Source: a bacterium
GTDB lineage: Bacteria > Patescibacteriota > Saccharimonadia > Saccharimonadales > Saccharimonadaceae
Reading direction: 5' to 3'
DNA length: 64,000 bases
NCBI GenBank assembly: GCA_963619155.1
Contig: CAVEVN010000013.1
Span: 5,263 to 69,262 of the forward strand
Position numbers and translations under genes: made by a program
Notes under the pieces: model-generated
Told to the model about the DNA's origin: nothing
The model's input: the letters and a program-made list of their open reading frames with translations, nothing else
Database searches by the model: none
Shown here: in pieces, positions 4,894 through 53,402 of the stretch
Position numbering within the stretch: position 1 is the stretch's first letter
How the letters are laid out: each line of letters opens with the position of its first letter

Positions 4894-4914
4894 TACTTTC
4901 GACCTCTGTTAAAC

Positions 4915-4943
4915 TTGACTTTTTCGGCAATCTGTGCTATAAT
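4915..4943 (+). promoter_or_regulatory. Orphan consensus promoter pointing antisense into gatA
   Basis: The plus strand reads TTGACT, the 17-nt spacer ttttcggcaatctgtgc, then TATAAT. This is nearly identical to the fusA and uvrC promoters in this window, but no plus-strand gene lies downstream. Confidence 0.45.
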
Positions 4944-4950
4944 AGATAGA

Positions 4951-26572: not shown

Positions 26573-27274
26573 CTATTTTCCAAAACGACGGTTGCGTTTT
26601 TCGTATTCCGCAATAATTTCGGCAATATCTGCCCCAGTCATTTCCGGAAAATATTTTTTAATAAACATTAGCTCCGCATAAGCCGCCCGCCACAGCATAA
26701 AACCCGAAATCCGCTCCTCCCCAGAGGTGCGCACCACCATGTCCACTGCCGGAATTTCCGGGTGATACAGGTGTCTGCGAATAGTTTCCGGCGTAATTTC
26801 GCCCTCGACCTGGCTTGCAATCGTCGCTGCGTCGGCAATTTCCTGCTCCCCGCCATAATTAAAACAGAATCCGACGGTAATCCCATCGCACTCCGCGGTC
26901 ATCTTTTCGGCCTTTTCAATTGTGCTCGCGAGCTTCACTGGCACTCGCCCGTCTTTAGCCCCGAGCACCAGCAGTCGCCCGTTTTTGTCTACCATTTTTT
27001 TAGCCAGGCGCATGATATGCTTGTCCGCCAGCCTCATCAGATACGAAACTTCTGCCTCGCTCCGCCCCCAGTTTTCCGTCGAGAACACGAAAAAACTCAC
27101 ATAAGGAATTTTTTGTTCCATCGCCGCCTCGATCAGTTCCTCAATTACCTCTAATCCCCGCTGATGCCCTTCTAGCGTCGACAGCCCCCGCTCCTTCGCC
27201 CACCGACGATTTCCGTCTGCGATAATCCCTAAATGTTGTAGTTTTTTCTCTGTATCCATTGACTTTTTCTCCAA
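26573..27274 (-). CDS. uppS: Undecaprenyl (isoprenyl) diphosphate synthase
   Basis: 233 aa. The motifs HLGIIADGNRRWA, FVFSTENW and the C-terminal RRFG are present. Confidence 0.93.
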   Translation of the reverse strand: MEKKSMDTEKKLQHLGIIADGNRRWAKERGLSTLEGHQRGLEVIEELIEAAMEQKIPYVSFFVFSTENWGRSEAEVSYLMRLADKHIMRLAKKMVDKNGRLLVLGAKDGRVPVKLASTIEKAEKMTAECDGITVGFCFNYGGEQEIADAATIASQVEGEITPETIRRHLYHPEIPAVDMVVRTSGEERISGFMLWRAAYAELMFIKKYFPEMTGADIAEIIAEYEKRNRRFGK

Positions 27275-27291
27275 AGTATGATATAATGGAG

Positions 27292-28866: not shown

Positions 28867-28912
28867 ACTATGAGTTATATAACAAAACTATTATAAAATC
28901 AAGCTCCAAGTC

Positions 28913-28941
28913 TTTACTTTTCGCCCCACCTGTGATATAAT
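28913..28941 (+). promoter_or_regulatory. rpsB-tsf promoter
   Basis: TTTACT, a 17-nt spacer ending ctgtga, then TATAAT. The leader to the GTG start at 29058 is about 110 nt. Confidence 0.6.
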
Positions 28942-29057
28942 AGAAGTATATATTAATTTAATGAAACAACTTCTGGGAGGTTTCCTGATCGCGTTTTAGG
29001 CGCCGAAAGCGTTTATCAAGCGGTAGTATTCCTAGAGGTGAAGAGAAAGGAAATATC

Positions 29058-34170: not shown

Positions 34171-34262
34171 TGGTGCGCGCGACTGGACTTGAACCAGCAC
34201 AGCCGTAAATGTGGCCACTACCACCTCAAGGTAGCGTGTCTACCAATTCCACCACGCGCGCC
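34171..34262 (-). tRNA. tRNA-Leu (anticodon GAG) with encoded CCA
   Basis: The reverse complement folds as a cloverleaf. The acceptor stem is GCGCGCG/CGCGCGC and the anticodon stem is CTACC/GGTAG with loop TTGAGGT. It has a long variable arm, a T-arm with GGTTCAAGTCC, and a 3' ACCA. The ends are accurate to about 1 nt. Confidence 0.9.
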
Positions 34263-37681: not shown

Positions 37682-37687
37682 CCTCTA

Positions 37688-37716
37688 ATTATAGCACAGA
37701 TTATCACAAAAGTCAA
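37688..37716 (-). promoter_or_regulatory. uvrC promoter (leaderless geometry)
   Basis: The minus strand reads TTGACT, the 17-nt spacer tttgtgataatctgtgc, then TATAAT. Only 6 nt (tagagg) separate the -10 box from the ATG at 37681. Confidence 0.6.
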
Positions 37717-37824
37717 GTTCGCCCCTGTTAGCGGGGTGGTTTTTATGTTAGCTCTCGTTCTCGATCACCTCTTTCACTCTAGCTAACAAAACGCGTGCTT
37801 GGCGCAGGCTAATTCCCGTTTTTT

Positions 37825-43590: not shown

Positions 43591-44295
43591 CTACTCTTTT
43601 GCCAACGCTCGAGCCTCTTTAAACCCGTCGTAGAAGTTCTCCGAAATCTTCGGATGACCGATTTTGTTGGCGGCTTTGACAACCTCGGTCACGTCGTTGG
43701 TGATGGTGAAAATTTTGGTGTCTCGCGCGCTAATCAGTTTTAATTTCAACATTTTGTCAATTACTTTTTCAAAACTTTTCCAATAATCTTTACCAATTAG
43801 GAAAACCGGCATTTTGGGCATCTTGTTTTCCTGCATCAAACACAAAATTTCCGAGATTTCGTCCATTGTACCAAACCCGCCTGGGAAAAAGGCAAACACT
43901 TTTGACGCCATCGCGAGCGACACTTTGCGCGCAAAGAAATATTCAAAAGTCAGACAATCCGTCAAGTACGGATTGGGGAATTGCTCGTGCGCCAAAGTGA
44001 TATTTAACCCGATCGAACGCCCGCCGATTTCGTACGCTCCGTGGTTGGCAGCCTCCATAATGCCAGGTCCGCCACCAGTTACCACCGCATGTCCGTTCTC
44101 GGCGAGTAGCCCCCCGAGTTTATACGCCATTTGGCAATATTTACTATCTTGTGGCAACCGCGCTGAGCCGAATACCGTCACTCCCTGCGGAAAAGTCCTT
44201 AGGGTTCTCAGCCCGTTGGTTAAATCTTTGGCATAAGCGTTCGCTCGCTCCAAATCTTCAATGGTTAATTTTTTGAGTAATTCATCTTGTAACAT
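43591..44295 (-). CDS. LOG family protein (TIGR00730; nucleotide phosphoribohydrolase)
   Basis: 234 aa. The motifs VFGSARL, TGGGPGIMEAAN and PGGFGTMDE are present. Confidence 0.85.
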   Translation of the reverse strand: MLQDELLKKLTIEDLERANAYAKDLTNGLRTLRTFPQGVTVFGSARLPQDSKYCQMAYKLGGLLAENGHAVVTGGGPGIMEAANHGAYEIGGRSIGLNITLAHEQFPNPYLTDCLTFEYFFARKVSLAMASKVFAFFPGGFGTMDEISEILCLMQENKMPKMPVFLIGKDYWKSFEKVIDKMLKLKLISARDTKIFTITNDVTEVVKAANKIGHPKISENFYDGFKEARALAKE

Positions 44296-44303
44296 AATTT
44301 TCC

Positions 44304-45266
44304 TTATATTTTTTGAATTGGCATCGGGTGCAACTTTTCGCGCCCGGTGAGCGCGCCTTTATTGGCGCCGAGTTTCGAAATTACGGAGGTCGAATTAGCA
44401 GAGGCGAATACCAGGGCCTTCTCGAAGGACTTCCCCGCGGAGATGGCGGCTAAAAATCCCGCCCCAAACGCATCTCCCGCTCCCGTTGCATCTTTGATTT
44501 TTTGGTCTTCATAAATCCCAAACCGATAAGTTTCCTCGCCGTTGCCGGCAATCCCGCCCATTGCTCCGTCGGTGATGATTACTGTCTCAACATAACTTTG
44601 CAACCGATATAATAGTTCCCCGAGTGTCGTCCCAGGCACGAGTTTAGCCGCCTCGGACTTATTGACAATCAAAATATCCACGTATTTGAGTAGTTGGATT
44701 AACTCTGGCGCTCGCTCTAGCTCTTTGATGCCAGGATTAAACATGATTTTGGTACCAATTTCATGAGCTTTTTTGCCAAATCGCGCAAAAGTTTCCAAAT
44801 CTCCGCGCAAAGTCGCAACATACAACCAATCTGGCGAAATTAAATCTAAATCCGTCTCCGAAAAGTTGCCGAATTGCTCACTCGCGCCCCGACAAGTTAA
44901 AATCGTGCGCTCTCCCGATTTTGAATCGAGCAACACCACCGACGTCCCCGTTGTTTTGCGCTCCAGGAAGTTCACATAACTATCGTCAATTCCCTCGCGC
45001 GCCAGAGTTTTAATAATCGCCGTTCCGGCCGGGTCGTGACCAAGATTGCCCATAAAAATCGCTTCGTGTCCACACCTCGCAAACGTAATCGCTGTGTTAA
45101 CACCGCCCCCGCCTACTTCGTAAGAAATTTTGTCGATATCGACTTTCGAGCCGACCAAAACTTTGCCAAAAATCGCCGCCTCACCAATCGTGGTCGCAAC
45201 CAAATCATCATGGTCGATCAAATAAATATCTTGCAACCCTGCGCCGAGCGAAAGTATTCGTGCCAT
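44304..45266 (-). CDS. PfkB-family carbohydrate kinase
   Basis: 320 aa. The motifs GGGGVNTA and DATGAGDAFGAGF are present. Confidence 0.85.
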   Translation of the reverse strand: MARILSLGAGLQDIYLIDHDDLVATTIGEAAIFGKVLVGSKVDIDKISYEVGGGGVNTAITFARCGHEAIFMGNLGHDPAGTAIIKTLAREGIDDSYVNFLERKTTGTSVVLLDSKSGERTILTCRGASEQFGNFSETDLDLISPDWLYVATLRGDLETFARFGKKAHEIGTKIMFNPGIKELERAPELIQLLKYVDILIVNKSEAAKLVPGTTLGELLYRLQSYVETVIITDGAMGGIAGNGEETYRFGIYEDQKIKDATGAGDAFGAGFLAAISAGKSFEKALVFASANSTSVISKLGANKGALTGREKLHPMPIQKI

Positions 45267-45922
45267 TATAGTACCACCCCACTTTTATCAATTTCGGCGA
45301 CTAGTTCCTCGAACATAGCAGCCGGATTTTCGGCTTGCGAAATCGCCGCTCCGACATTAATCACATCTAGGTCTGCATGAGCCAAAGCTCGCACGTTAGT
45401 TTCGTTGGCTCCGCCGTCCCAACCAATTTCCACTTCTGGCTTCATATTGCGAATAAGTGCAATTTTTTCCATTTGCATTAAATCGGCCGGATTGCCCTGT
45501 ATTCCGAGTTGCCCCGCAAAAATCAGCACATGGTCCGCCGCGTCGATATATTGCTTAACATCGCCGGGATAAGTCGAGGGCAAAAGCGCCACGCCAGTTT
45601 TAATCCCAGCATTTTTAAGCCTTTCAAATGACGGTAATAAATTTTCGCTCGCTTCGGCATGTAAAATACATAGCGACGGCGTGAGTTTTAGGACGGTACC
45701 TAATTGTTCTGACGGTTTTGTCGCCATTAAGTGCAAATCCGCCTCCCAGTTTTTCGGCCACCAAATGTTCGTAATGTCGAGCGTCTGCGTCGGCGCAAAA
45801 ATTCCGTCCGTCACATCAATTTGCACTCGCCGGGTAAACACATTGATGCGCTCAACTTGCGCGCGAAAATCTTGTTTATTGTCGGTTAAAATCGCCGGCA
45901 CGATCGACACCTGCCTAATCAT
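45266..45922 (-). CDS. Ribulose-phosphate 3-epimerase-like TIM-barrel protein
   Basis: 218 aa. The segments IVPAILT...VQIDVTDGIFAP...DLHLM...GWDGG fit the Rpe pattern. The sequence is divergent. Confidence 0.6.
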   Translation of the reverse strand: MIRQVSIVPAILTDNKQDFRAQVERINVFTRRVQIDVTDGIFAPTQTLDITNIWWPKNWEADLHLMATKPSEQLGTVLKLTPSLCILHAEASENLLPSFERLKNAGIKTGVALLPSTYPGDVKQYIDAADHVLIFAGQLGIQGNPADLMQMEKIALIRNMKPEVEIGWDGGANETNVRALAHADLDVINVGAAISQAENPAAMFEELVAEIDKSGVVL

Positions 45923-46364
45923 AATCTTCCCTTTCGTCTAAACGATTAATTCGCCGCGCTCGGCGTTCCAAACTTTCAAACTTGGTTTCTAAAAATTGAG
46001 CTACAATTTCCTGCATCATAGCCTCGTCGATAAAATGCGCCGACAAACACAGTACATTTGCGTCGTCGTGTTCACGCGCCAGTTTCGCCGATTCCGCCGA
46101 ATCACAATTTGCTGCTCGCACGCCTTTAAACCGATTGGCCTGCATCGTCACACCGTGCGCCGAGTCGCAAATCAGCACTCCGAAAGCCTCGTGTTCACGG
46201 CGCACCGCTCGCGCCACCGCTATCGCCGGGTCGTTATAATCATCACCCTCGTGATAACTATACGCCCCGACGTCCATTACCTCATAATCTTTGCTCGCCA
46301 AAAACTTTAAGAGTTCATTTTTTTTCTCGAATCCGCGATAATCCGCCCCGACAAAAACTCGCAT
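45915..46364 (-). CDS. rpiB: Ribose-5-phosphate isomerase B (RpiB/LacA/LacB family)
   Basis: 149 aa. The motifs VGADYRGFEKK, GVLICDSAHGVTMQANR and RAANC are present. Confidence 0.85.
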   Translation of the reverse strand: MRVFVGADYRGFEKKNELLKFLASKDYEVMDVGAYSYHEGDDYNDPAIAVARAVRREHEAFGVLICDSAHGVTMQANRFKGVRAANCDSAESAKLAREHDDANVLCLSAHFIDEAMMQEIVAQFLETKFESLERRARRINRLDEREDYD

Positions 46365-47368
46365 TACGCCCCTTTCCCAAAATCAACCGCGAGTTCCACC
46401 AGCCGGTTCGAATACCCCCATTCGTTATCGTACCACGCCACAATCTTGATTAAGTTCCCTCCAACCACGTCAATGAGCGGCAAATCTACAATACAAGAAT
46501 GCGGATCGCCGATAAAGTCCGACGATACTAATTCCTCGTCCGTCACGCCAATAATTCCTTGATAATATGGCTCTTTGGCGGCTTTTTTGAATAAGTTTTG
46601 TAACTCTTCTTTGGTGACGTCGCGTTTAACAATTGCCGTAATGTCCGACAACGAAACCACTGGCGTCGGAACGCGCACCGACAGTCCATTAAACTTACCC
46701 TTGAGGCTCGGAATCGTCAGCGCCGCAGCTTTGGAAGCTCCAGTTGAAGTCGGCACGATGTTTTCTGCCGCCGAACGCGCCTCGCGCAAGTCTTTCGCTG
46801 GCGCATCGAGGATTTTTTGCGAGCCGGTATAAGAATGTACCGTCGTCATCATTGCCTTTTCAATCCCAATTTCGTCTTCCAAGACTTTCATCACTGGCGC
46901 GATACAGTTCGTCGTACAAGACGCGTTCGAAATTATCTCATCGTTATCTTCCACTACGTCTTCGTTGACCCCTAGCACCACAGTTTTTGCGCCTTCGCCC
47001 TTAGCCGGCGCCGAAATTACTACTTTTTTCGCCCCCGCCTTGATGTGCGCCCGTGCATCTTTTGGATTAGTAAAAAATCCGGTCGATTCAATCACGACAT
47101 CCACACCAAGCTCGCCCCACGGCAACTTCGCCGGGTCTTTCTCCGCAAAAACGGGAATTTCGCGCGTGTTCACTACGATCGCATTTTCCTTTGCGGCTAC
47201 TTTTTTATCATAAGTCCCGTATGAGGAATCGTGTTTTAAGAGGTGTGCCAGAGTTTTTGCATCCGTAATATCGTTAATCGCCACCACTTGCGTGTCGTGT
47301 CTCTCCAACAAAATTTTCAACGCATTCCGTCCGATGCGTCCGAAGCCGTTAATCGCTACTTTTACCAT
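46364..47368 (-). CDS. gap: Glyceraldehyde-3-phosphate dehydrogenase
   Basis: 334 aa. The motifs VAINGFGRIGR, SNASCTTNC and WYDNEWGYS are present. Upstream are an SD (GGAGG) and a TGCTATAAT promoter. Confidence 0.96.
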   Translation of the reverse strand: MVKVAINGFGRIGRNALKILLERHDTQVVAINDITDAKTLAHLLKHDSSYGTYDKKVAAKENAIVVNTREIPVFAEKDPAKLPWGELGVDVVIESTGFFTNPKDARAHIKAGAKKVVISAPAKGEGAKTVVLGVNEDVVEDNDEIISNASCTTNCIAPVMKVLEDEIGIEKAMMTTVHSYTGSQKILDAPAKDLREARSAAENIVPTSTGASKAAALTIPSLKGKFNGLSVRVPTPVVSLSDITAIVKRDVTKEELQNLFKKAAKEPYYQGIIGVTDEELVSSDFIGDPHSCIVDLPLIDVVGGNLIKIVAWYDNEWGYSNRLVELAVDFGKGA

Positions 47369-47463
47369 TTTTACCTCCTAAATATACTTAAGCTCATTAT
47401 AGCACACTTCGCCTCAAAAGCACAAGCAACAAAAATACACCTCTTACTGAACGGAAAACATAG

Positions 47464-47576
47464 GCAACAAAAATCACCTCTTCGGGACAGTACGGAGGCT
47501 ACGGCCGAGTAATAGGGAGCGAGCCCCGTAACGACGGGCGCGAGCGACCCGTGTCCCGAAGGGGTGTTTTTGTTGC
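47464..47576 (-). terminator. Long imperfect inverted repeat with a 64-nt GC-rich core, probably the rpsL-rpsG terminator
   Basis: The arms GCAACAAAAATCACCTCTTCGGGAC (47464-47488) and GTCCCGAAGGGGTGTTTTTGTTGC (47553-47576) have one bulge and one G-T pair. On the minus strand the 3' arm ends in ATTTTTGTTGCC. The element starts 8 nt after the rpsG stop. Confidence 0.55.
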
Positions 47577-47584
47577 TGGGCGGG

Positions 47585-48061
47585 TTAGCGAGCAAAATGC
47601 GCAAACGCGCGGTTCGCTTCGGCCATGCGGTGGCAATCTTCTTTCTTCTTGAAGGCTGCGCCTTGCTCGTTGTAAGCGTCAACAATCTCAAGTTCAAGCC
47701 GTTTCGCATATGGCATCCCACTGCGCGCTCGGGCAGATTGAACCAACCACGAAAATGCAAAATGCAGTTGCCGATGTCCCGAAATCGGGAACGGGATTTG
47801 ATAGTTCGCACCACCAACCCGGCGACTTTTCACCTCGAAATCCGGCGAAATATTCGCGATTGCTTTTTCTAGAACTTCGACTGGATTCTCCGAATCCAAT
47901 TTTTTCGCTGCACCCTCAATCGCAGCATAAACCGCACGCTCCGCAACTTGTTTCTTTCCATCTAACATTGACTTATTAATTAATCTTTGCACCAAAATCG
48001 ACTGATATTTGCGATCTGGGCTCACTTTTCGCTCTAGCGACTTAGTAGTTTTCCGTGGCAT
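47585..48061 (-). CDS. rpsG: Ribosomal protein S7
   Basis: 158 aa. The motifs PDRKYQS, VEVKSRRVGGANYQIP and MAEANRAFAHF are present. Confidence 0.96.
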   Translation of the reverse strand: MPRKTTKSLERKVSPDRKYQSILVQRLINKSMLDGKKQVAERAVYAAIEGAAKKLDSENPVEVLEKAIANISPDFEVKSRRVGGANYQIPFPISGHRQLHFAFSWLVQSARARSGMPYAKRLELEIVDAYNEQGAAFKKKEDCHRMAEANRAFAHFAR

Positions 48062-48475
48062 TTACTTACCCTCCTTCTTCGCCCCGTATTTCGAGCGACC
48101 TTGTTTGCGACCTTGTACGCCTTGAAGGTCCAAAGCCCCACGCACGATGTGATAACGCACACCTGGTAAATCCGGCACCCGTCCGCCGCGCACTAGCACG
48201 ACCGCGTGTTCCTGTAAATTGTGGCCTTCGCCCCCGATATACGCCCAAACTTCTTGACCATTAGTTAGCCGCACACGCGCGACTTTCCGCATTGCCGAGT
48301 TTGGTTTCTTTGGCGTCTTAGTAGTTACTTTAATACAAACCCCGCGCTTTAATGGCGAAGCTTTCTCGTAGCGTTTGGTTTTCAAAGTGTTCACAATCGA
48401 ACCGAGCGCCGGAGATTTCGACTTTTTCGCTGCCTTTTTGCGTGGCTTGCGAATCAACTGATTGATAGTTGGCAT
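48062..48475 (-). CDS. rpsL: Ribosomal protein S12
   Basis: 137 aa. The motifs [26 protein letters not shown] and [13 protein letters not shown] are present. Confidence 0.97.
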
Positions 48476-48617
48476 CTAATTCCTCTTCTCTATTATTTTT
48501 AATGATACGCTATATCTAGCGTCTCGAGTGCTAAAATCGCCCACAAAACACCATATCTAGCGTCTATTTGTCAGCCCGCCTACAGCAATCCGCGAGCCAA
48601 CCGAAACTCTTCCTTTC

Positions 48618-48646
48618 ATTATATCACACTTAACCTAAAAAGTCCA
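48618..48646 (-). promoter_or_regulatory. rpsL-rpsG promoter
   Basis: The minus strand reads TGGACT, a 17-nt spacer ending gtgtga, then TATAAT. The leader to rpsL is about 140 nt. Confidence 0.55.
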
Positions 48647-48703
48647 CTGTTTAATAGTTGAACTTGAACTAAATCAATATTTTTTTATTTTTTATCATAA
48701 CTA

Positions 48704-48712
48704 TGATATAAT
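48704..48712 (+). promoter_or_regulatory. Extended -10 promoter (TGaTATAAT) for the structured RNA and four-gene operon
   Basis: TGATATAAT lies at 48704-48712. The predicted transcription start (about 48719-48720) coincides with the first nucleotide of the outer stem of the downstream structure. Confidence 0.55.
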
Positions 48713-48719
48713 TAAAGAG

Positions 48720-48860
48720 CTTAGACTTTTATAATTTGACAAACCGATTCTGAAAAGAATCGCTGGTTTCAAGAAAATCTTGTGGCTATGTGCTCGAGTT
48801 TGGTTCTTGAAACCAGATTTGTCAAAAGGTCTAAGCAACTTGGTACGTAGCCACATTTTT
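48720..48860 (+). ncRNA. Candidate structured RNA (three-way junction plus possible pseudoknot), 5' leader of the operon or an independent small RNA
   Basis: P1a is CTTAGAC (48720-26)/GTCTAAG (48829-35). P1b is TTTGACAAA (48735-43)/TTTGTCAAA (48818-26). P2 is CGATTC-tgaaaa-GAATCG (48745-62). P3 is a perfect 13-bp stem, CTGGTTTCAAGAA (48763-75)/TTCTTGAAACCAG (48804-16). TGTGGCTA in the P3 loop (48781-88) is complementary to TAGCCACA (48848-55), which is followed by TTTTT. Confidence 0.55.
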
Positions 48861-48931
48861 GTGTCAATAAGAAACTATTTAGGCAAAAGTCTCTTAAACG
48901 TATCAAAAATAATAAAAGTTTAGGAGAAACT

Positions 48932-50194
48932 ATGTCGAGACGCAGGTCAAAAAAGGATAATAATAAGTGGCTTACTGTTATTATTGTGGTTTTGTGTGTT
49001 TGTGCACTTGGTTTTTTTATTTACGCCGGCTCGTCTTCGGGCGAAAATTCAAGTTGCGGTACTCGTGAAGAAGACACGGAACGCAGTGGCTATTGCCTCA
49101 CGACGAGCAAAGATTATGACGAATTAGTCATCGTAACTGGCAATACTCAAAACACTCCAGCTCCAGACTTAGACTTTACCCAGGGCGAATTATACGATAT
49201 TTTAGGCGGCGTATTTTATAATTCCGAGAGAGGAGCTGCTCCTAATGTCTCGATAGTTTCAGTCGCCGGCAACAATCATATTATAGAGTATACTGCTAAC
49301 CATAAAGTTGCTCAAAACATTATCGCATCGAATAACGAACTCAAAAAACTCGGCAAAGAGTTAAATAAGGCTATTAAAACTTTACCATCGGAATCCGGAG
49401 CAGATTATTTGGGTGCGATTCTGGAAGCAAACAACATTATTTCAAACACGTCTAAAAATCCCATTATATTGGTGGTCGGTTCGGGATATAGCGATTCTGG
49501 CGCATTGAATTTTGCATCCGATGAAATATTCAATTTATATTGGCAAAATGCCGACAATATCACTCAGCTTCTCTCGCAAAATCGGCAAACCAAAGAAGGC
49601 GCACTCAATCAAACGGCGGTCTATTGGTATAATTTGGGAGATACGGTGGCTCCGCAGGCCAGTTTGAATGTCTACAAGGAAGATACTAAAGAAATTTACG
49701 AACTCGCACTTGAATACCTTGGAGCTGGAAAAATTAGTCTCAATAATTATACCGGTATTTCTTCAGAAGCGACATCTGTCGCTTCTGAATATAGTGTGCA
49801 ACAGATCTATATTGATGAATTGAAAGTTGGGGATACCTTCAATGTCAACGAAGATATTGGGCGTTTTTATCCGGACGCAGCCACGTTAATAAACGCAAGC
49901 GAAGTCAAAGAAAAATTAGTATCTTTTGCCAAACATTTTAACCCGAACGGAAATACAAAACTGAAACTAACTGGATACATCGCATATTGTATAGACGAGG
50001 GGCAATTGGGTTTGTCCCGCGCCAATGCAATCAAGAATATACTGATGGAATTAGGCATACCAGAAAATAAGATCGAAACCCATGGCGAGCGAGGCTCTCC
50101 GCCAGAATCTAATAACGAAGCTTATACTTGCCGGAGCTCTTTACCCGAGACCGAGCGTAGAACAGTAAAAATAGAAGTAATAAAGGATGAATAA
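48932..50194 (+). CDS. Membrane-anchored protein with a vWA-like alpha/beta region and a C-terminal OmpA-like peptidoglycan-binding domain
   Basis: 420 aa with an SD (AGGAG) and an N-terminal TM helix (WLTVIIVVLCVCALGFFIYAG). The central region (ELVIVTGNTQNTPAPD...ILVVGSGYSDSG) is vWA-like with a degenerate MIDAS motif; this call is tentative. The C-terminus FYPDAATL...KLKLTGYIA...LSRANAIKNILMELGIPENKIETHGERGSPP...RRTVKIEV fits OmpA_C-like. Confidence 0.75.
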   Translation: MSRRRSKKDNNKWLTVIIVVLCVCALGFFIYAGSSSGENSSCGTREEDTERSGYCLTTSKDYDELVIVTGNTQNTPAPDLDFTQGELYDILGGVFYNSERGAAPNVSIVSVAGNNHIIEYTANHKVAQNIIASNNELKKLGKELNKAIKTLPSESGADYLGAILEANNIISNTSKNPIILVVGSGYSDSGALNFASDEIFNLYWQNADNITQLLSQNRQTKEGALNQTAVYWYNLGDTVAPQASLNVYKEDTKEIYELALEYLGAGKISLNNYTGISSEATSVASEYSVQQIYIDELKVGDTFNVNEDIGRFYPDAATLINASEVKEKLVSFAKHFNPNGNTKLKLTGYIAYCIDEGQLGLSRANAIKNILMELGIPENKIETHGERGSPPESNNEAYTCRSSLPETERRTVKIEVIKDE

Positions 50195-51045
50195 TGTCTA
50201 AAACTTTTGGTAATTTTGAATTCGGCGAGCATTTGTTTAATATTTGTTTCTCTTCTGGTCTAACATGCGTAATTTGTCTTGCAATTGGCGTTTCGCTTAA
50301 TTATATGGGTTTCTTTTCTAATGAAGCTAACCTGTGGGTGATTTTAGCCTTGTGCCTTGTTCCTGTGTGGACATTTATAACTGTATTTTTCGAATCGGAG
50401 TTTAAAATAGCCTACTACAAAACTTGGCATGATAAAATTATGGGGCTAATCGACCAATCAAAAATTCTTCAACGTTTTGCAAAACAATATAAAATTAAAA
50501 ATTGGAAAAATAAACTTGAGGAAGTCAAGACAGATGGGCGGTGGCATTTTTATGCGGACACTAACTACATGCATAGGTTAGCGGAGCAACGTGATTTAAC
50601 GATCGGTAAAATATATCGAGAATATCTCGCAGAAATGGCTCTCAAAAAAACAACGGTAATAAGCGCGCAGAAAGAATTATCGAATGCGACCATTCAACTA
50701 AAAGAAGCAGAAGACGCGGAAAAAATCGCTAAAAAATTATGCGAAGAAGCAAAATCGCCAGGCGAGATTTATAAGCAAAGACAAAGTTATCAAATAAAAA
50801 GACGTGAACTTGCCGAAGCGATGACAAAGAAAAGCGACGCAGAATATGCCTTGCAAGAACAAACAAAAGAAAGAGAAGATATAATTAACATGTACCAACA
50901 AGAGGCCGCTTTGATTGTGAAAATTTTTTATTCAAGATATTTAAAATACACTGAGTCTGCTATTAAGAAAATTAATAAAATCAACGGATTAAAATATACG
51001 ATAGTCGATATGTCAAAAGCTAATATACCGACATTAACAATATAA
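50194..51045 (+). CDS. Hypothetical protein with two TM helices and a long coiled-coil
   Basis: 283 aa. Its start overlaps the upstream stop (TAATG). Two hydrophobic helices are followed by a charged heptad-like region (ISAQKELSNATIQLKEAEDAEKIAKKLCEEAK...). Confidence 0.7.
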   Translation: MSKTFGNFEFGEHLFNICFSSGLTCVICLAIGVSLNYMGFFSNEANLWVILALCLVPVWTFITVFFESEFKIAYYKTWHDKIMGLIDQSKILQRFAKQYKIKNWKNKLEEVKTDGRWHFYADTNYMHRLAEQRDLTIGKIYREYLAEMALKKTTVISAQKELSNATIQLKEAEDAEKIAKKLCEEAKSPGEIYKQRQSYQIKRRELAEAMTKKSDAEYALQEQTKEREDIINMYQQEAALIVKIFYSRYLKYTESAIKKINKINGLKYTIVDMSKANIPTLTI

Positions 51046-51058
51046 GAAAGGAACCAAA

Positions 51059-51592
51059 ATGAAATTTTTTAATTTTTTCACAAAGGAAAAAGATGAAGAT
51101 ATCGACCATGATTGGCGCGATTTAGACGCGTTACCCAAAGAAGTTGTTTCTGAAAAAGAACTTGATGCTATGCAGGATGAGGTTGTTAAAAAATTGACAA
51201 ATTTAGAGCATGACACTATCAAACAAACCGGCGATATACCAACGGCTAAGCCTCAGGCGCTGTTCTATTGCCATAAATATATTGATGCTAAATTTAACAA
51301 AGAAAATTTCGATATCGATACATATTTTTCCAGAAAACAGAATATTTTAGACCGAAAATACGCAGAGGGGCTAGGCGATGTTAAAGCGGAATTTACCGGG
51401 TACAAAGAATTGATTGAAGAGATAAAAGAGGTCGACTGGCGCCTGAGAAAGAAGATAAACAAATTGGATCCGAGTTCAAATGTGAATTTGGATGTTGCTG
51501 GGACTTATGATGATTCCGAGGTGTTGCTTGCGCAAATTAACGAATTGCCAGCCGGCATTAATTGGGATAATTTTGAAAAGGAGAACGAATGA
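51059..51592 (+). CDS. Hypothetical acidic soluble protein
   Basis: 177 aa with an RBS (GAAAGGA) 7 nt upstream. Its stop overlaps the next start (ATGA). I recognise no family. Confidence 0.65.
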   Translation: MKFFNFFTKEKDEDIDHDWRDLDALPKEVVSEKELDAMQDEVVKKLTNLEHDTIKQTGDIPTAKPQALFYCHKYIDAKFNKENFDIDTYFSRKQNILDRKYAEGLGDVKAEFTGYKELIEEIKEVDWRLRKKINKLDPSSNVNLDVAGTYDDSEVLLAQINELPAGINWDNFEKENE

Positions 51593-52503
51593 ATATTTTT
51601 AGACGCAGACGCAAAAACGAGACTACGGACGCTCAGCAACCCGTGGTCGACTTTGGTAATTTGAAAGGTAAAAACACAAAATCTCCAGAAACAGACACAA
51701 CGGCTTCGAGTGAGATTGCGGACGTCCAGTATGAAAAAATACAACAAACTATTTTTGGGGTTCGTTTTCCTTGGGAGGCTATATTTTTCGTAACCGTAGG
51801 CGCATTGAGTGAGGTCGTCGATGCGATGTTCCTCAATGCTACACTGGAAACTCTAGGGCGTGATTTGGATCCGACCACAGCTACGATCATTTCTTATATT
51901 GTTGGTGCCGGTTGTTTCTTTTCGATGGCGTTTGTCGGTTTTCAATTTGGCAACAGACGCTATTATACGAAAGTTGGCGAATATGTCTCTTATGGTTTTT
52001 GGGCAGGCTCTGGGATTGCTCTCGTTGCAGCTAAATTATTGGCCGGTTTAGTTGGAGGGGGTCTAGATAGTGTTATTGCCGGCAGAATGAGTGCTAGCGA
52101 ACTGTTCGGCTCGGAGGAGTTTCTTTCCAATTTGATTGTCGCCGTAGTTCAGGCGGTTCTTTATGTCGGGACCGGTTTTATGACGAGAGATAGCGTTCGT
52201 ATTCTGACCGACAATGATTTAAGAGAATATTTTTTGGCAAGGCGTCGTTATAAGCAACTTTTGAAAGAACTCTCTGAGCAGCGTGGAAATATCGCCGAAG
52301 ATATTTCAAAACTAAAGTCCTATCCAAAATTCGCAGAAAGATTAGTCCTGTCAAAACGTTCAGTCAAAAAGAACGTAGCTCAATATAACGAATCTGCAAG
52401 GGCTTTAATAGAAGCAAAGATGGCGATCACGGTAGAGCCAGATTTAATGGAAGATATGTACGATAGAGCAATGGAAAAAGAGGCTCTTCGAAATAAAAAA
52501 TAA
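51589..52503 (+). CDS. Hypothetical polytopic membrane protein with a C-terminal coiled-coil tail
   Basis: 304 aa with about four hydrophobic helices between residues 60 and 200. A charged helical tail follows (RRRYKQLLKELSEQRGNIAEDISKLK...). Confidence 0.7.
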   Translation: MNIFRRRRKNETTDAQQPVVDFGNLKGKNTKSPETDTTASSEIADVQYEKIQQTIFGVRFPWEAIFFVTVGALSEVVDAMFLNATLETLGRDLDPTTATIISYIVGAGCFFSMAFVGFQFGNRRYYTKVGEYVSYGFWAGSGIALVAAKLLAGLVGGGLDSVIAGRMSASELFGSEEFLSNLIVAVVQAVLYVGTGFMTRDSVRILTDNDLREYFLARRRYKQLLKELSEQRGNIAEDISKLKSYPKFAERLVLSKRSVKKNVAQYNESARALIEAKMAITVEPDLMEDMYDRAMEKEALRNKK

Positions 52504-52518
52504 AATCATGTAAAAAAC

Positions 52519-52546
52519 AATGGCGCCCAAACAGGCGCCATTTTTT
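52519..52546. terminator. Bidirectional intrinsic terminator
   Basis: Stem AATGGCGCC/GGCGCCATT (9 bp) with loop CAAACA. It is flanked by AAAAAAC and TTTTTT, and it overlaps the stop of the convergent gene 52545..53402. Confidence 0.8.
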
Positions 52547-53402
52547 AATGTGCTTTATGCACCCATTGCTCCCATTGACCACATAAATGGTCGTATAGAT
52601 CCAAAAAGGCTGCAATATTCACATGAATCGGGTGTGGCCATTCTAGCATCAAGGTTCTCTTGTCGGATAAGTCGAGATAGACATAGTCTTCTGTTGAATT
52701 CATGAGCCGATCAAGTTGATAGCCAAGATGTTTATTAAGACTCACCGGAAAGAAGCTATAATAGCAGAATATCCACTTCAAAAACATTTCCCGATATGCA
52801 AAAAAATATTCAGTAGCCTTTGACGGGTCGTCTTTGAGCATGTTTTTAATATAGGCTTCTTTTGGCATCAGATAATTCTTGATTGACTGAAGTCGTTTAT
52901 TGCGAACTGCATCGTCGTAATACGGTAAATATTTGAGCGACATTTTATCCAGATCTGACTTATCGCCAGCGATAACAATGCCGTCTCGAACAATCGCACC
53001 GATTACGATATCTGTCGAGTCATAAACTGCAGAATGCTTCAGTTCTTCACAAGTCGGCAAGACTGGTCTTGCAATTTTACAATCAAGCACAGTGCCTTGA
53101 TGAATTATCGAAAACTCAACCCTGTTGCCGGCGCCGTCTCTTACGACATGCGGGTATTTCACCCACTCCTTAACGATGCTCCTTAAGCGATAGCGAACAA
53201 CTTCTACTATACCGTCTAGGTTGTCAGCTACTGCCCTGTTCGTCAACGCTACTATGTCTAAATCCGATGTCCCGATATTGAAACATCCAGAATAAGCAGC
53301 GGAACCAAAGAGGACCAATGTTTTTATCTCTAGTCCACCCAGTTCATGTTTGAAAAAACTTTTGCAAAATTTTATAGTTTCTTGATATTTTTGTGAATCC
53401 AC
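52545..53402 (-). CDS. Nucleotidyltransferase-domain protein (Pol-beta superfamily, ANT/KNTase-like fold)
   Basis: 285 aa. LVLFGSAAYSGCFNIGTSDLDIVAL matches the GS...D.D minimal NTase motif. The helical C-terminal half is not assigned. Confidence 0.65.
   Translation of the reverse strand: MDSQKYQETIKFCKSFFKHELGGLEIKTLVLFGSAAYSGCFNIGTSDLDIVALTNRAVADNLDGIVEVVRYRLRSIVKEWVKYPHVVRDGAGNRVEFSIIHQGTVLDCKIARPVLPTCEELKHSAVYDSTDIVIGAIVRDGIVIAGDKSDLDKMSLKYLPYYDDAVRNKRLQSIKNYLMPKEAYIKNMLKDDPSKATEYFFAYREMFLKWIFCYYSFFPVSLNKHLGYQLDRLMNSTEDYVYLDLSDKRTLMLEWPHPIHVNIAAFLDLYDHLCGQWEQWVHKAH

Follow-up and report, generated by a model that had tools for sequence, protein, structure and literature searches.

A conserved structured leader RNA of a mobile envelope cassette in Saccharibacteria as a candidate translational regulator

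To our knowledge, the tiny genomes of Patescibacteria, including Saccharibacteria, encode few regulators that can be recognised, and hardly any regulatory RNA has been described in them. What, then, is the role of a highly structured leader RNA of about 213 nt that precedes a four-gene operon in a Saccharibacteria genome? The leader occupies positions 48719-48931 of the forward (+) strand of a 64,000-nt stretch of contig CAVEVN010000013.1, further referred to as the window. An earlier note on this stretch described a three-way junction with a pseudoknot, assigned it to no known class and proposed either a novel cis-regulator or a small RNA. We find a conserved, strand-specific structured leader in which a covarying helix sequestering the Shine-Dalgarno (SD) sequence competes with a helix formed by a linker, the alternative states being nearly isoenergetic. 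Our reading is that this is a cis-acting 5' leader RNA, a riboswitch-like translational regulator of the four-gene envelope cassette, and we give this reading a probability of about 0.6.

The minimum free energy (MFE) of the leader calculated with ViennaRNA is -71.1 kcal/mol, compared to -39.1 +/- 4.1 kcal/mol for 200 dinucleotide shuffles (z = -7.9; 0/200), hence the structure goes beyond chance. The calculation gives back the nested fold of the earlier note, and every sequence feature listed there was found, with coordinates off by at most 1-2 nt. The opposite strand of the window leader is clearly less stable, and in 10 of 10 homologues tested the + strand folds better than the - strand by 6-16 kcal/mol.

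The sensor domain (48719-48836, +) is a three-way junction, delineated by the MFE fold and its z-score as well as by the RNAalifold consensus and pair counts on 10-11 homologues. It is closed by helix P1a, in which GCUUAGAC (48719-48726) pairs with GUCUAAGC (48829-48836). The helix was predicted previously with 7 bp; 8 bp are conserved and up to 12 bp may form in the window. The asymmetric internal loop at 48727-48734 separates P1a from P1b (48735-48745 with 48816-48826), for which 9 bp had been claimed, consistent with the 7-9 bp seen in the window and the 11 bp seen in most homologues. The P2 hairpin (CGAUUC 48745-48750 with GAAUCG 48757-48762, 6-nt loop) and the perfect 13-bp helix P3 (48763-48775 with 48804-48816, 28-nt loop) are exactly as described before. 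The P3 loop contains an inner hairpin, P3a (48779-48798), that is supported by compensatory changes.

Homologues were gathered via protein homologues of genes 1 and 4 of the operon, exact-protein look-ups and a pattern scan of metagenomes. The gene 1 scan of genome contigs yielded three loci only, and the scan of the JGI metagenomes with an 18-mer yielded one true match (L015) and four chance matches. All homologues of the cassette proteins come from Saccharibacteria assemblies. The search upstream of homologous cassettes revealed the same element in 11 further loci from different Saccharibacteria samples (L001, L004, L005, L006, L007/L008, L010, L011, L013, L015, L021 and L022/L023), which provide 11 distinct leaders and, among them, about 10 different sensor sequences. 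In the aligned loci the leader always lies on the operon strand directly 3' of a TGnTAyAAT box, whose position relative to P1a is constant. In L001 and L022/L023 the upstream gene is rpsL, as in the window, and at the other loci with a known upstream region it is unrelated (a divergent gene of 209-226 amino acids, small open reading frames, Toprim primases, or the BrnA antitoxin). Therefore the RNA travels with the cassette and not with rpsL. A leader of rpsL (ribosomal protein S12) was rejected on the same grounds: the RNA lies on the other strand and has its own promoter, and the neighbour in L004-L008, L010, L013 and L021 is not rpsL. The adjacency to rpsL in the window is thus coincidental.

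Over the 10-11 homologues compared, 97% of cells in the helices are paired, as against 30-45% when the partners are slid, and the number of cells with double changes is 9, compared to 2.8 +/- 1.3 in shuffles (0/500). Among the homologues P2 changes from GCAG/CUGC to ACAG/CUGU (G-C to A-U), and the window lineage has a different 6-bp hairpin at the same position. P3 has one double change from G-C to A-U (L010) along with U.G and G.U changes, P3a changes from C-G to U-A in three sequences, and P1b shows a single A-U to G.U change. P1a does not vary among the leaders and is thus uninformative for covariation. The variable parts of the sensor are the junction strand J1b/2 and P2, the other stems being near-invariant. 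The 11 leaders hence share a feature looked for in riboswitches, a conserved structured domain of the 5' untranslated region (UTR) with covariation, here in P2, P3 and P3a. Nearly all one-sided changes in helices produce G.U pairs on the + strand. Together with the strand asymmetry of stability, this bias argues that the leader acts as RNA rather than as a DNA cruciform or operator.

Pairwise identity of the 124-nt RNA core is 89-100% (94% on average), whereas for gene 1 it is 62-90% in the protein, about 69% in the nucleotides of the coding sequence and 25-52% at four-fold degenerate sites, which are saturated. Within the leader, identity falls to about 65% in the P2/J1b-2 segment and to about 64% in the expression platform. 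The window and L001 have identical cores (124/124) and agree at 52% of four-fold sites. As judged from these alignments, the RNA core is under extreme purifying selection. Its near-invariance beside saturated synonymous sites points to a strongly selected function, presumably control of the mobile envelope cassette.

The sensor is followed by 24 nearly invariant nucleotides of linker and tail, AACUUGGUACGUAGCCACAUUUUU (48837-48860), in which, of the 11 distinct leaders, only L013 and L022 differ, by one substitution each. This segment enters at least three competing pairings. It comprises the linker UUGGUACGU (48840-48848) directly after P1, the strand UAGCCACA (48848-48855) and the U-run UUUUU (48856-48860). 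As noticed earlier, UAGCCACA is complementary over 8 nt to UGUGGCUA (48781-48788) in the P3 loop, and the two form a candidate pseudoknot whose 5' strand overlaps P3a. A perfect 8-nt complement between the P3 loop and the next 40 nt occurs in 0.8% of shuffles. Conservation of the proposed pseudoknot was confirmed, as it is kept in 10 of 11 leaders with 98.9% of cells paired. Compensatory support was not found: the changes are of the wobble type only (C-G to U.G in five sequences, U-A to U.G in one), and L022/L023 have an A.C mismatch. The pseudoknot competes with P3a, which shows true covariation, and with a small tail hairpin, GCCAC-AUUUUUC-GUGGC. The energy of the pseudoknot duplex is from -9.8 to -12.2 kcal/mol versus -8.2 to -13.9 kcal/mol for P3a plus the tail hairpin, that is, the two options are roughly balanced. 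The pseudoknot is plausible, and it would probably be one of two alternative states.

The expression platform links this tail to the start of gene 1. The SD region GUUUAGGAG (48918-48926) includes AGGAG at 48922-48926, which confirms the ribosome-binding site noted previously, and the AUG start codon read from the sequence is at 48932-48934. The sole conserved island in the otherwise variable platform is the 16-nt bridging block CUCUUAAACGUAUCAA (48891-48906), which has the form CUCCUAGACGUACCAA in most homologues. Its 5' half, the anti-SD (48891-48899), pairs with the SD at 48918-48926, and its 3' half ACGUAUCAA (48898-48906) pairs with the linker at 48840-48848. The 9-bp anti-SD:SD helix is present in 11/11 leaders with 98% of cells paired, and has compensatory changes at two pairs (G-C to A-U in three sequences and C-G to U-A in one). 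The linker:block helix, also of 9 bp, has 99% of cells paired and shows C/U alternation opposite G. In state A the linker:block helix is accompanied by pairing of CUCC with an upstream GGAG, and the SD is free; in state B the anti-SD:SD helix sequesters it. Constrained folding of five divergent leaders yielded differences between the states from -0.3 to +3.4 kcal/mol. In the MFE fold of most leaders the SD is paired. The platform thus has mutually exclusive pairings tied to the sensor, and the states would be expected to interconvert.

Alternative conformations before the SD had been anticipated in the earlier note, from pairing of AAAAGUCU with AGACUUUU of the 5' P1a region. Such conformations are possible in principle, and AAAAGUCU is indeed present, at 48885-48892; as a conserved alternative the specific pairing had to be rejected, since it is absent outside the window lineage. 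The conserved alternatives are the anti-SD:SD and linker:block helices.

Comparison with known elements was made in several ways. The scan of the whole window with Rfam 15 (4227 models, among them those of all curated riboswitches, ribozymes, T-box, 6S, SRP and leaders) at gathering thresholds produced tRNA only, and at E <= 10 the region 48400-49000 produced two noise matches (a small nucleolar RNA with 21 bits against 43, and psRNA6 with 8 bits against 60); the assessment that no known riboswitch or leader class is present therefore holds. The only tRNA, and the only Rfam match in the 64-kb window, is tRNA-Leu(GAG) at 34171-34261 (-). The linker motif UUGGUAC bears a superficial likeness to a T-box; this reading was discarded, as no Rfam T-box model matched at E <= 10 and the downstream genes encode envelope proteins. 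As to type III antitoxins, which are tandem repeats of a short unit located 5' of the toxin gene, the only direct repeat family in 48700-48930 is the promoter block, and this reading was dropped. In the literature we found no Saccharibacteria leader or riboswitch of this kind, riboswitches being mentioned only as a possible engineering tool. The repeat search, the pattern search and a covariance model built here (R1) found the element once in the 64-kb window and once in each positive locus, and on this basis a repeat resembling a miniature inverted-repeat transposable element (MITE) or a repetitive extragenic palindrome (REP) was rejected. Viral contigs contained no match to exact patterns of two conserved blocks or to the cassette protein profile, and blastn gave no match in phage and plasmid collections. 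We also dismissed a conserved small open reading frame on either strand, given the frameshifts, the loss of a start codon and the non-synonymous changes.

Transcription termination inside the leader was considered separately, given that both a terminator-like helix and a small RNA ending at the T-run had been suggested. No G+C-rich hairpin followed by a U-run, as required of an intrinsic terminator or attenuator, was found at the leader, and the terminator scan of 48000-49400 returned 0 sites. In most homologues the U-run is situated within the loop of the GCCAC-AUUUUUC-GUGGC hairpin. The helix is thus not a canonical terminator, and the small-RNA option lost its support, since the T-run is not the tail of one; the operon has its own canonical terminator at 52512-52547. 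The other option, a novel cis-regulator, is supported by the lack of an Rfam match, the single copy, the recurrence in varied contexts and the covariation of helices.

The leader is also modular. L010 (2775-3003) and L011 (73-302) share the same gene 1 coding sequence and platform and have different sensors, that of L011 being of the L006/L015 type, which suggests recombination at the border of sensor and platform, about 10 nt past the U-run. In L014 (75% identity; 2403-2620) the RNA has been cleanly deleted, while the promoter, the 5' strand of P1a (ACTTAGACTT) and the SD remain; this cassette is located directly 3' of a C5-methylase/MvaI-BcnI restriction-modification pair. Short plain leaders without the RNA are found in L002 (54% identity, beside a tRNA), L009 and L012 (68%). 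Such a modular and dispensable leader is what one expects of a regulator. In L002 (3835-3910, 3950-4000) gene 1 is almost leaderless and comes after a tRNA gene and a promoter matching the consensus, TTGACA-17-TGATATAAT; this arrangement is consistent with tRNA-adjacent integration of the cassette. In L005 (2700-2740), L006 (1340-1375) and L007 (2695-2730) a short inverted repeat of variable sequence (GATGCTTAAGGGGTGAGCATC in L005) lies upstream of the RNA between divergent promoters. This repeat could serve as an operator or form the 5' hairpin of the divergent gene of 209-226 amino acids.

We propose the following mechanism. The leader would be transcribed from an extended -10 promoter as one message with the cassette. 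In the OFF state the 5' half of the bridging block would pair with the SD and hide it; in the ON state its 3' half would pair with the linker and its CUCC with the upstream GGAG, leaving the SD open. The SD-free domain would close co-transcriptionally, ahead of SD synthesis, and therefore the default would be ON. A trigger would stabilise docking of the tail UAGCCACA on the P3 loop in the form of the pseudoknot, at the cost of P3a and the tail hairpin. The docked tail would withhold the linker, and the freed bridging block would capture the SD, turning gene 1 off. The arms formed by P1 and by P3/P3a are of similar length (about 19-22 bp-equivalents), so that on geometric grounds fold-back at the junction would put the tail beside the P3 loop. 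Candidates for the trigger are a small molecule and a protein or RNA supplied by the mobile element; we infer both the existence of a trigger and the assignment of the ligand-bound state. A classical small-molecule pocket is less obvious, because the junction is unconserved and the stems are invariant; a partner protein or RNA, or simply several pairing constraints that overlap, would be credible instead.

Several points weigh against this reading. Only about 10 distinct sensor sequences are available, all from a narrow clade, and the distribution of the element is likewise narrow, being confined to one sub-clade of the mobile Saccharibacteria cassette. No variation at all occurs in P1a (8 bp) or in most of P1b and P3, hence these parts carry no covariation information, and the shuffle controls for covariation ignore phylogeny. 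A junction without conserved unpaired nucleotides combined with near-invariant stems is atypical of small-molecule aptamers. Protein recognition or multiple alternative pairings would fit this pattern better, and the bare junction may be taken as mild evidence against direct binding of a small molecule. Nor does the function of the cassette give a metabolic pointer to a ligand. The pseudoknot has no compensatory change, and the A.C mismatch in L022/L023 also hits P3a. The start site and the regulation itself are predictions from sequence. Finally, the linker helix shares only 2 nt with the anti-SD:SD helix, and both might in principle coexist as an H-type pseudoknot, resulting in a constitutive SD trap.

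The latter possibility leads to a constitutive structured 5' UTR, where P1 blocks 5'-end-dependent decay and the anti-SD sets low, fixed translation without any sensing. Such a role suits the position of P1a, which begins at, or 1-2 nt from, the inferred 5' end in all loci, the pairing of the SD in most MFE folds and the conceivable coexistence of the two helices. We nevertheless consider it unlikely: a stabiliser needs a terminal hairpin only, which leaves the near-invariance of 124 nt next to saturated synonymous sites unexplained, and the same holds for the near-isoenergetic exclusive pairings (P3a versus the pseudoknot and linker:block versus anti-SD:SD) retained in divergent leaders. More doubtful is a small RNA of about 140 nt, independent or with a dual function, that would end at the U-run (48856-48860) and act in trans in the mobile element, read-through providing the mRNA. 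The best-conserved part does stop exactly at the U-run, the 3' strand of the pseudoknot with U5 resembles a stem with a U-tail, the recombination breakpoint of L011 is at the sensor/platform border, and stem invariance could mean base-pairing with a target. However, no terminator hairpin precedes the U-run, which in most homologues is in the GCCAC/GUGGC loop, whereas the true terminator in this genome (52512-52547) is canonical. Moreover, the conserved, covarying helices join the linker, the downstream block and the SD, which is sensible in cis only, and a search of the window and the loci with the covariance model revealed neither another copy nor anything resembling a target site.

An element acting at the DNA level (a recombination or attachment site, a hairpin of a single-strand origin or of an origin of transfer (oriT), a protein operator array, or a MITE-like repeat at the left end of the cassette) is very improbable, even though homology of the window to other loci starts at about the -10 box or P1a, that is, at the left edge of a low-GC island, genes for primases, an integrase, restriction-modification and a toxin-antitoxin system lie nearby, the stem sequences do not vary, and TTTGACAAA/TTTGTCAAA come close to palindromes. 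Each locus and the 64-kb window contain the element once, in every case on the strand of the operon and directly after the promoter; the G.U bias of the + strand (which would be A.C on the other strand) and the strand asymmetry of 6-16 kcal/mol are those of an RNA; a covarying SD pairing would be meaningless in DNA; and plasmid, phage and viral collections gave no match. Attenuation by a leader peptide is close to refuted. Here the position of the ribosome on a frame of 20-22 codons (V-A-M-C-S-S-L-V-L-E-T-R-F-V-K-R-S-K-Q-L-G-T), whose stop is the UAG of the pseudoknot strand, would remodel the leader. Of the 11 leaders, 9 keep the frame open, with its stop in the tail, but L004 and L005 have a 1-nt indel that breaks it, L004 has AGG in place of the AUG, no SD precedes the start, which is buried in P3a, and 7 of about 8 substitutions are non-synonymous and occur at covarying RNA pairs. 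A minus-strand frame of 45-51 amino acids is "conserved" to the same extent, as expected of any invariant stop-free sequence.

The promoter of the leader (48684-48712, +) consists of a weak -35-like box TTTATT (48684-48689), a 14-nt gap and the extended -10 box TGATATAAT at 48704-48712, in agreement with the earlier prediction. The first structured base, G48719, is about 6-7 nt past this box, and transcription is predicted to start at A48718/G48719. Since its -35 box is weak, the promoter was missed by the generic scan. It belongs to a family (D5) of promoter-like repeat blocks of the window. These are near-identical blocks of 30-43 nt, AACTTGACTTTTT ... TGTGNTATAAT, in which conservation outside both hexamers is unusually high. 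The repeat search located them at 4904-4946, 27248-27290 and 28902-28944 on the + strand and at 2190-2225, 37685-37720, 47393-47420 and 48617-48650 on the - strand. The last one is the rpsL promoter, placed at 48618-48646 by the promoter scan. The blocks suggest that the housekeeping promoter architecture is strongly constrained in this genome.

The operon (48932-52503, +) includes four open reading frames. In the product of gene 1 (48932-50194, 420 amino acids) an N-terminal membrane helix is combined with an alpha/beta domain and an OmpA/MotB-like domain for peptidoglycan binding. Gene 2 (50194-51045, 283 amino acids) encodes a membrane protein with a long coiled coil; gene 3 (51059-51592, 177 amino acids), a small soluble protein; and gene 4 (51589-52503, 304 amino acids), a protein with four membrane helices and a long coiled coil. 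The operon is closed by the bidirectional intrinsic terminator at 52512-52547 (both strands; AUGGCGCC-loop-GGCGCCAU followed by a T-run). The OmpA-like domain of gene 1 is matched by Pfam, NCBIfam and PDB profiles, and a Foldseek search with its AlphaFold model (pLDDT 90) hit PDB through the OmpA/MotB-like C-terminal domain only; the same search with the gene 4 model gave no significant PDB match. PADLOC, PHROGs, NCBIfam and Pfam recognised in the cassette only the OmpA-like domain of gene 1 and, in a fifth gene present elsewhere, a staphylococcal nuclease (SNase) domain. This fifth gene, which follows the cassette in all loci outside the window lineage (L004-L014 and L021; 5885-6688 in L021) and is missing from the window, L001 and L022, encodes a membrane-anchored nuclease-like protein with a cysteine-containing C-terminal extension. 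The analogy to Zorya-like (MotAB-type) systems was dropped, as no model supports it, and profile searches found no RNA-binding candidate among the cassette proteins.

The leader lies in a 456-nt divergent intergenic region, with rpsL and rpsG, then the gene gap, on the minus strand. The genes at 43591-48475 (-) are rpsL, rpsG and, directly after them, gap, rpiB, rpe, a PfkB-family kinase gene and a LOG-like gene, and do not include fusA or tuf; the classical str operon is broken here and joined to genes of sugar-phosphate metabolism. The leader and the cassette, along with a convergent gene of 285 amino acids, form a low-GC island (48700-53400; 0.38-0.41 versus 0.45-0.50) flanked by rpsL and a CDF cation-efflux gene. 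The island was probably acquired horizontally. The convergent gene (52545-53402, -) has a faint nucleotidyltransferase (MntA-like) signal. Across the loci the neighbours of the cassette comprise a restriction-modification system, an antitoxin, an integrase, primases and tRNA, and therefore the cassette is considered mobile and island-associated.

Beyond the cis-acting regulator that we favour, one may tentatively go further and regard the sensor and the platform as the aptamer and expression platform of a new riboswitch class, or as another direct RNA sensor, which might detect, e.g., a signal derived from nucleotides or a cue from an invader or the host. Such a sensor, the first to be specific to Patescibacteria, would gate a mobile, peptidoglycan-anchored membrane complex that usually includes a secreted nuclease, and these epibionts may use the complex for defence or for scavenging nucleic acids. 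The trigger, if found, would show which signal the epibionts monitor and give a functional handle on the cassette, and would also provide a native compact expression switch for a group short of inducible genetic tools. Natural variants offer ready controls: the deletion in L014, the sensor/platform recombinant L011 and the pseudoknot mismatch in L022.

Among known systems, SAM-II/SAM-V and preQ1-II/III are translational riboswitches in which a pseudoknot with the 3' tail is combined with SD sequestration. The leader studied here is similar in being a 5' leader acting in cis, in the pairing of a loop with a 3' tail near the platform, and in occlusion of the SD instead of a terminator. Unlike them, it has a far larger, rod-like sensor of 118 nt, a junction without conserved unpaired nucleotides and sequence-invariant stems, and its SD is not in the pseudoknot but in a separate helix coupled via the 16-nt block; neither sequence nor covariance models show similarity. 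THF-I, purine and TPP riboswitches are three-way junctions with a long-range tertiary contact, whose pocket nucleotides are conserved while the stems covary freely. They share with the leader three helices, a long-range contact of a distal loop that closes the fold, and P1 linked to the platform. In the leader, by contrast, J1b/2 and P2 vary and the stems are invariant, and the Rfam models of these riboswitches do not match at E <= 10.

Autoregulatory protein-binding leaders, such as those of ribosomal proteins S15 and L20 and the operator hairpins and pseudoknots of phages, are also structured, have a pseudoknot near the SD and show sequence-specific conservation of helices. This likeness would suit a trigger protein encoded by the cassette or the mobile element, with the difference that the cassette has yielded no RNA-binding candidate. 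The leader of Escherichia coli ompA is a 5' stabiliser with a helix at the mRNA 5' end; the leader in question likewise has a helix right at the 5' terminus of an mRNA that encodes an envelope protein with an OmpA domain, but is not homologous to it, is far larger and contains conserved competing pairings. In function, the leader, which belongs to no Rfam family, seems to resemble pseudoknot-assisted translational riboswitches and autoregulatory leaders, and may be described as a candidate riboswitch.

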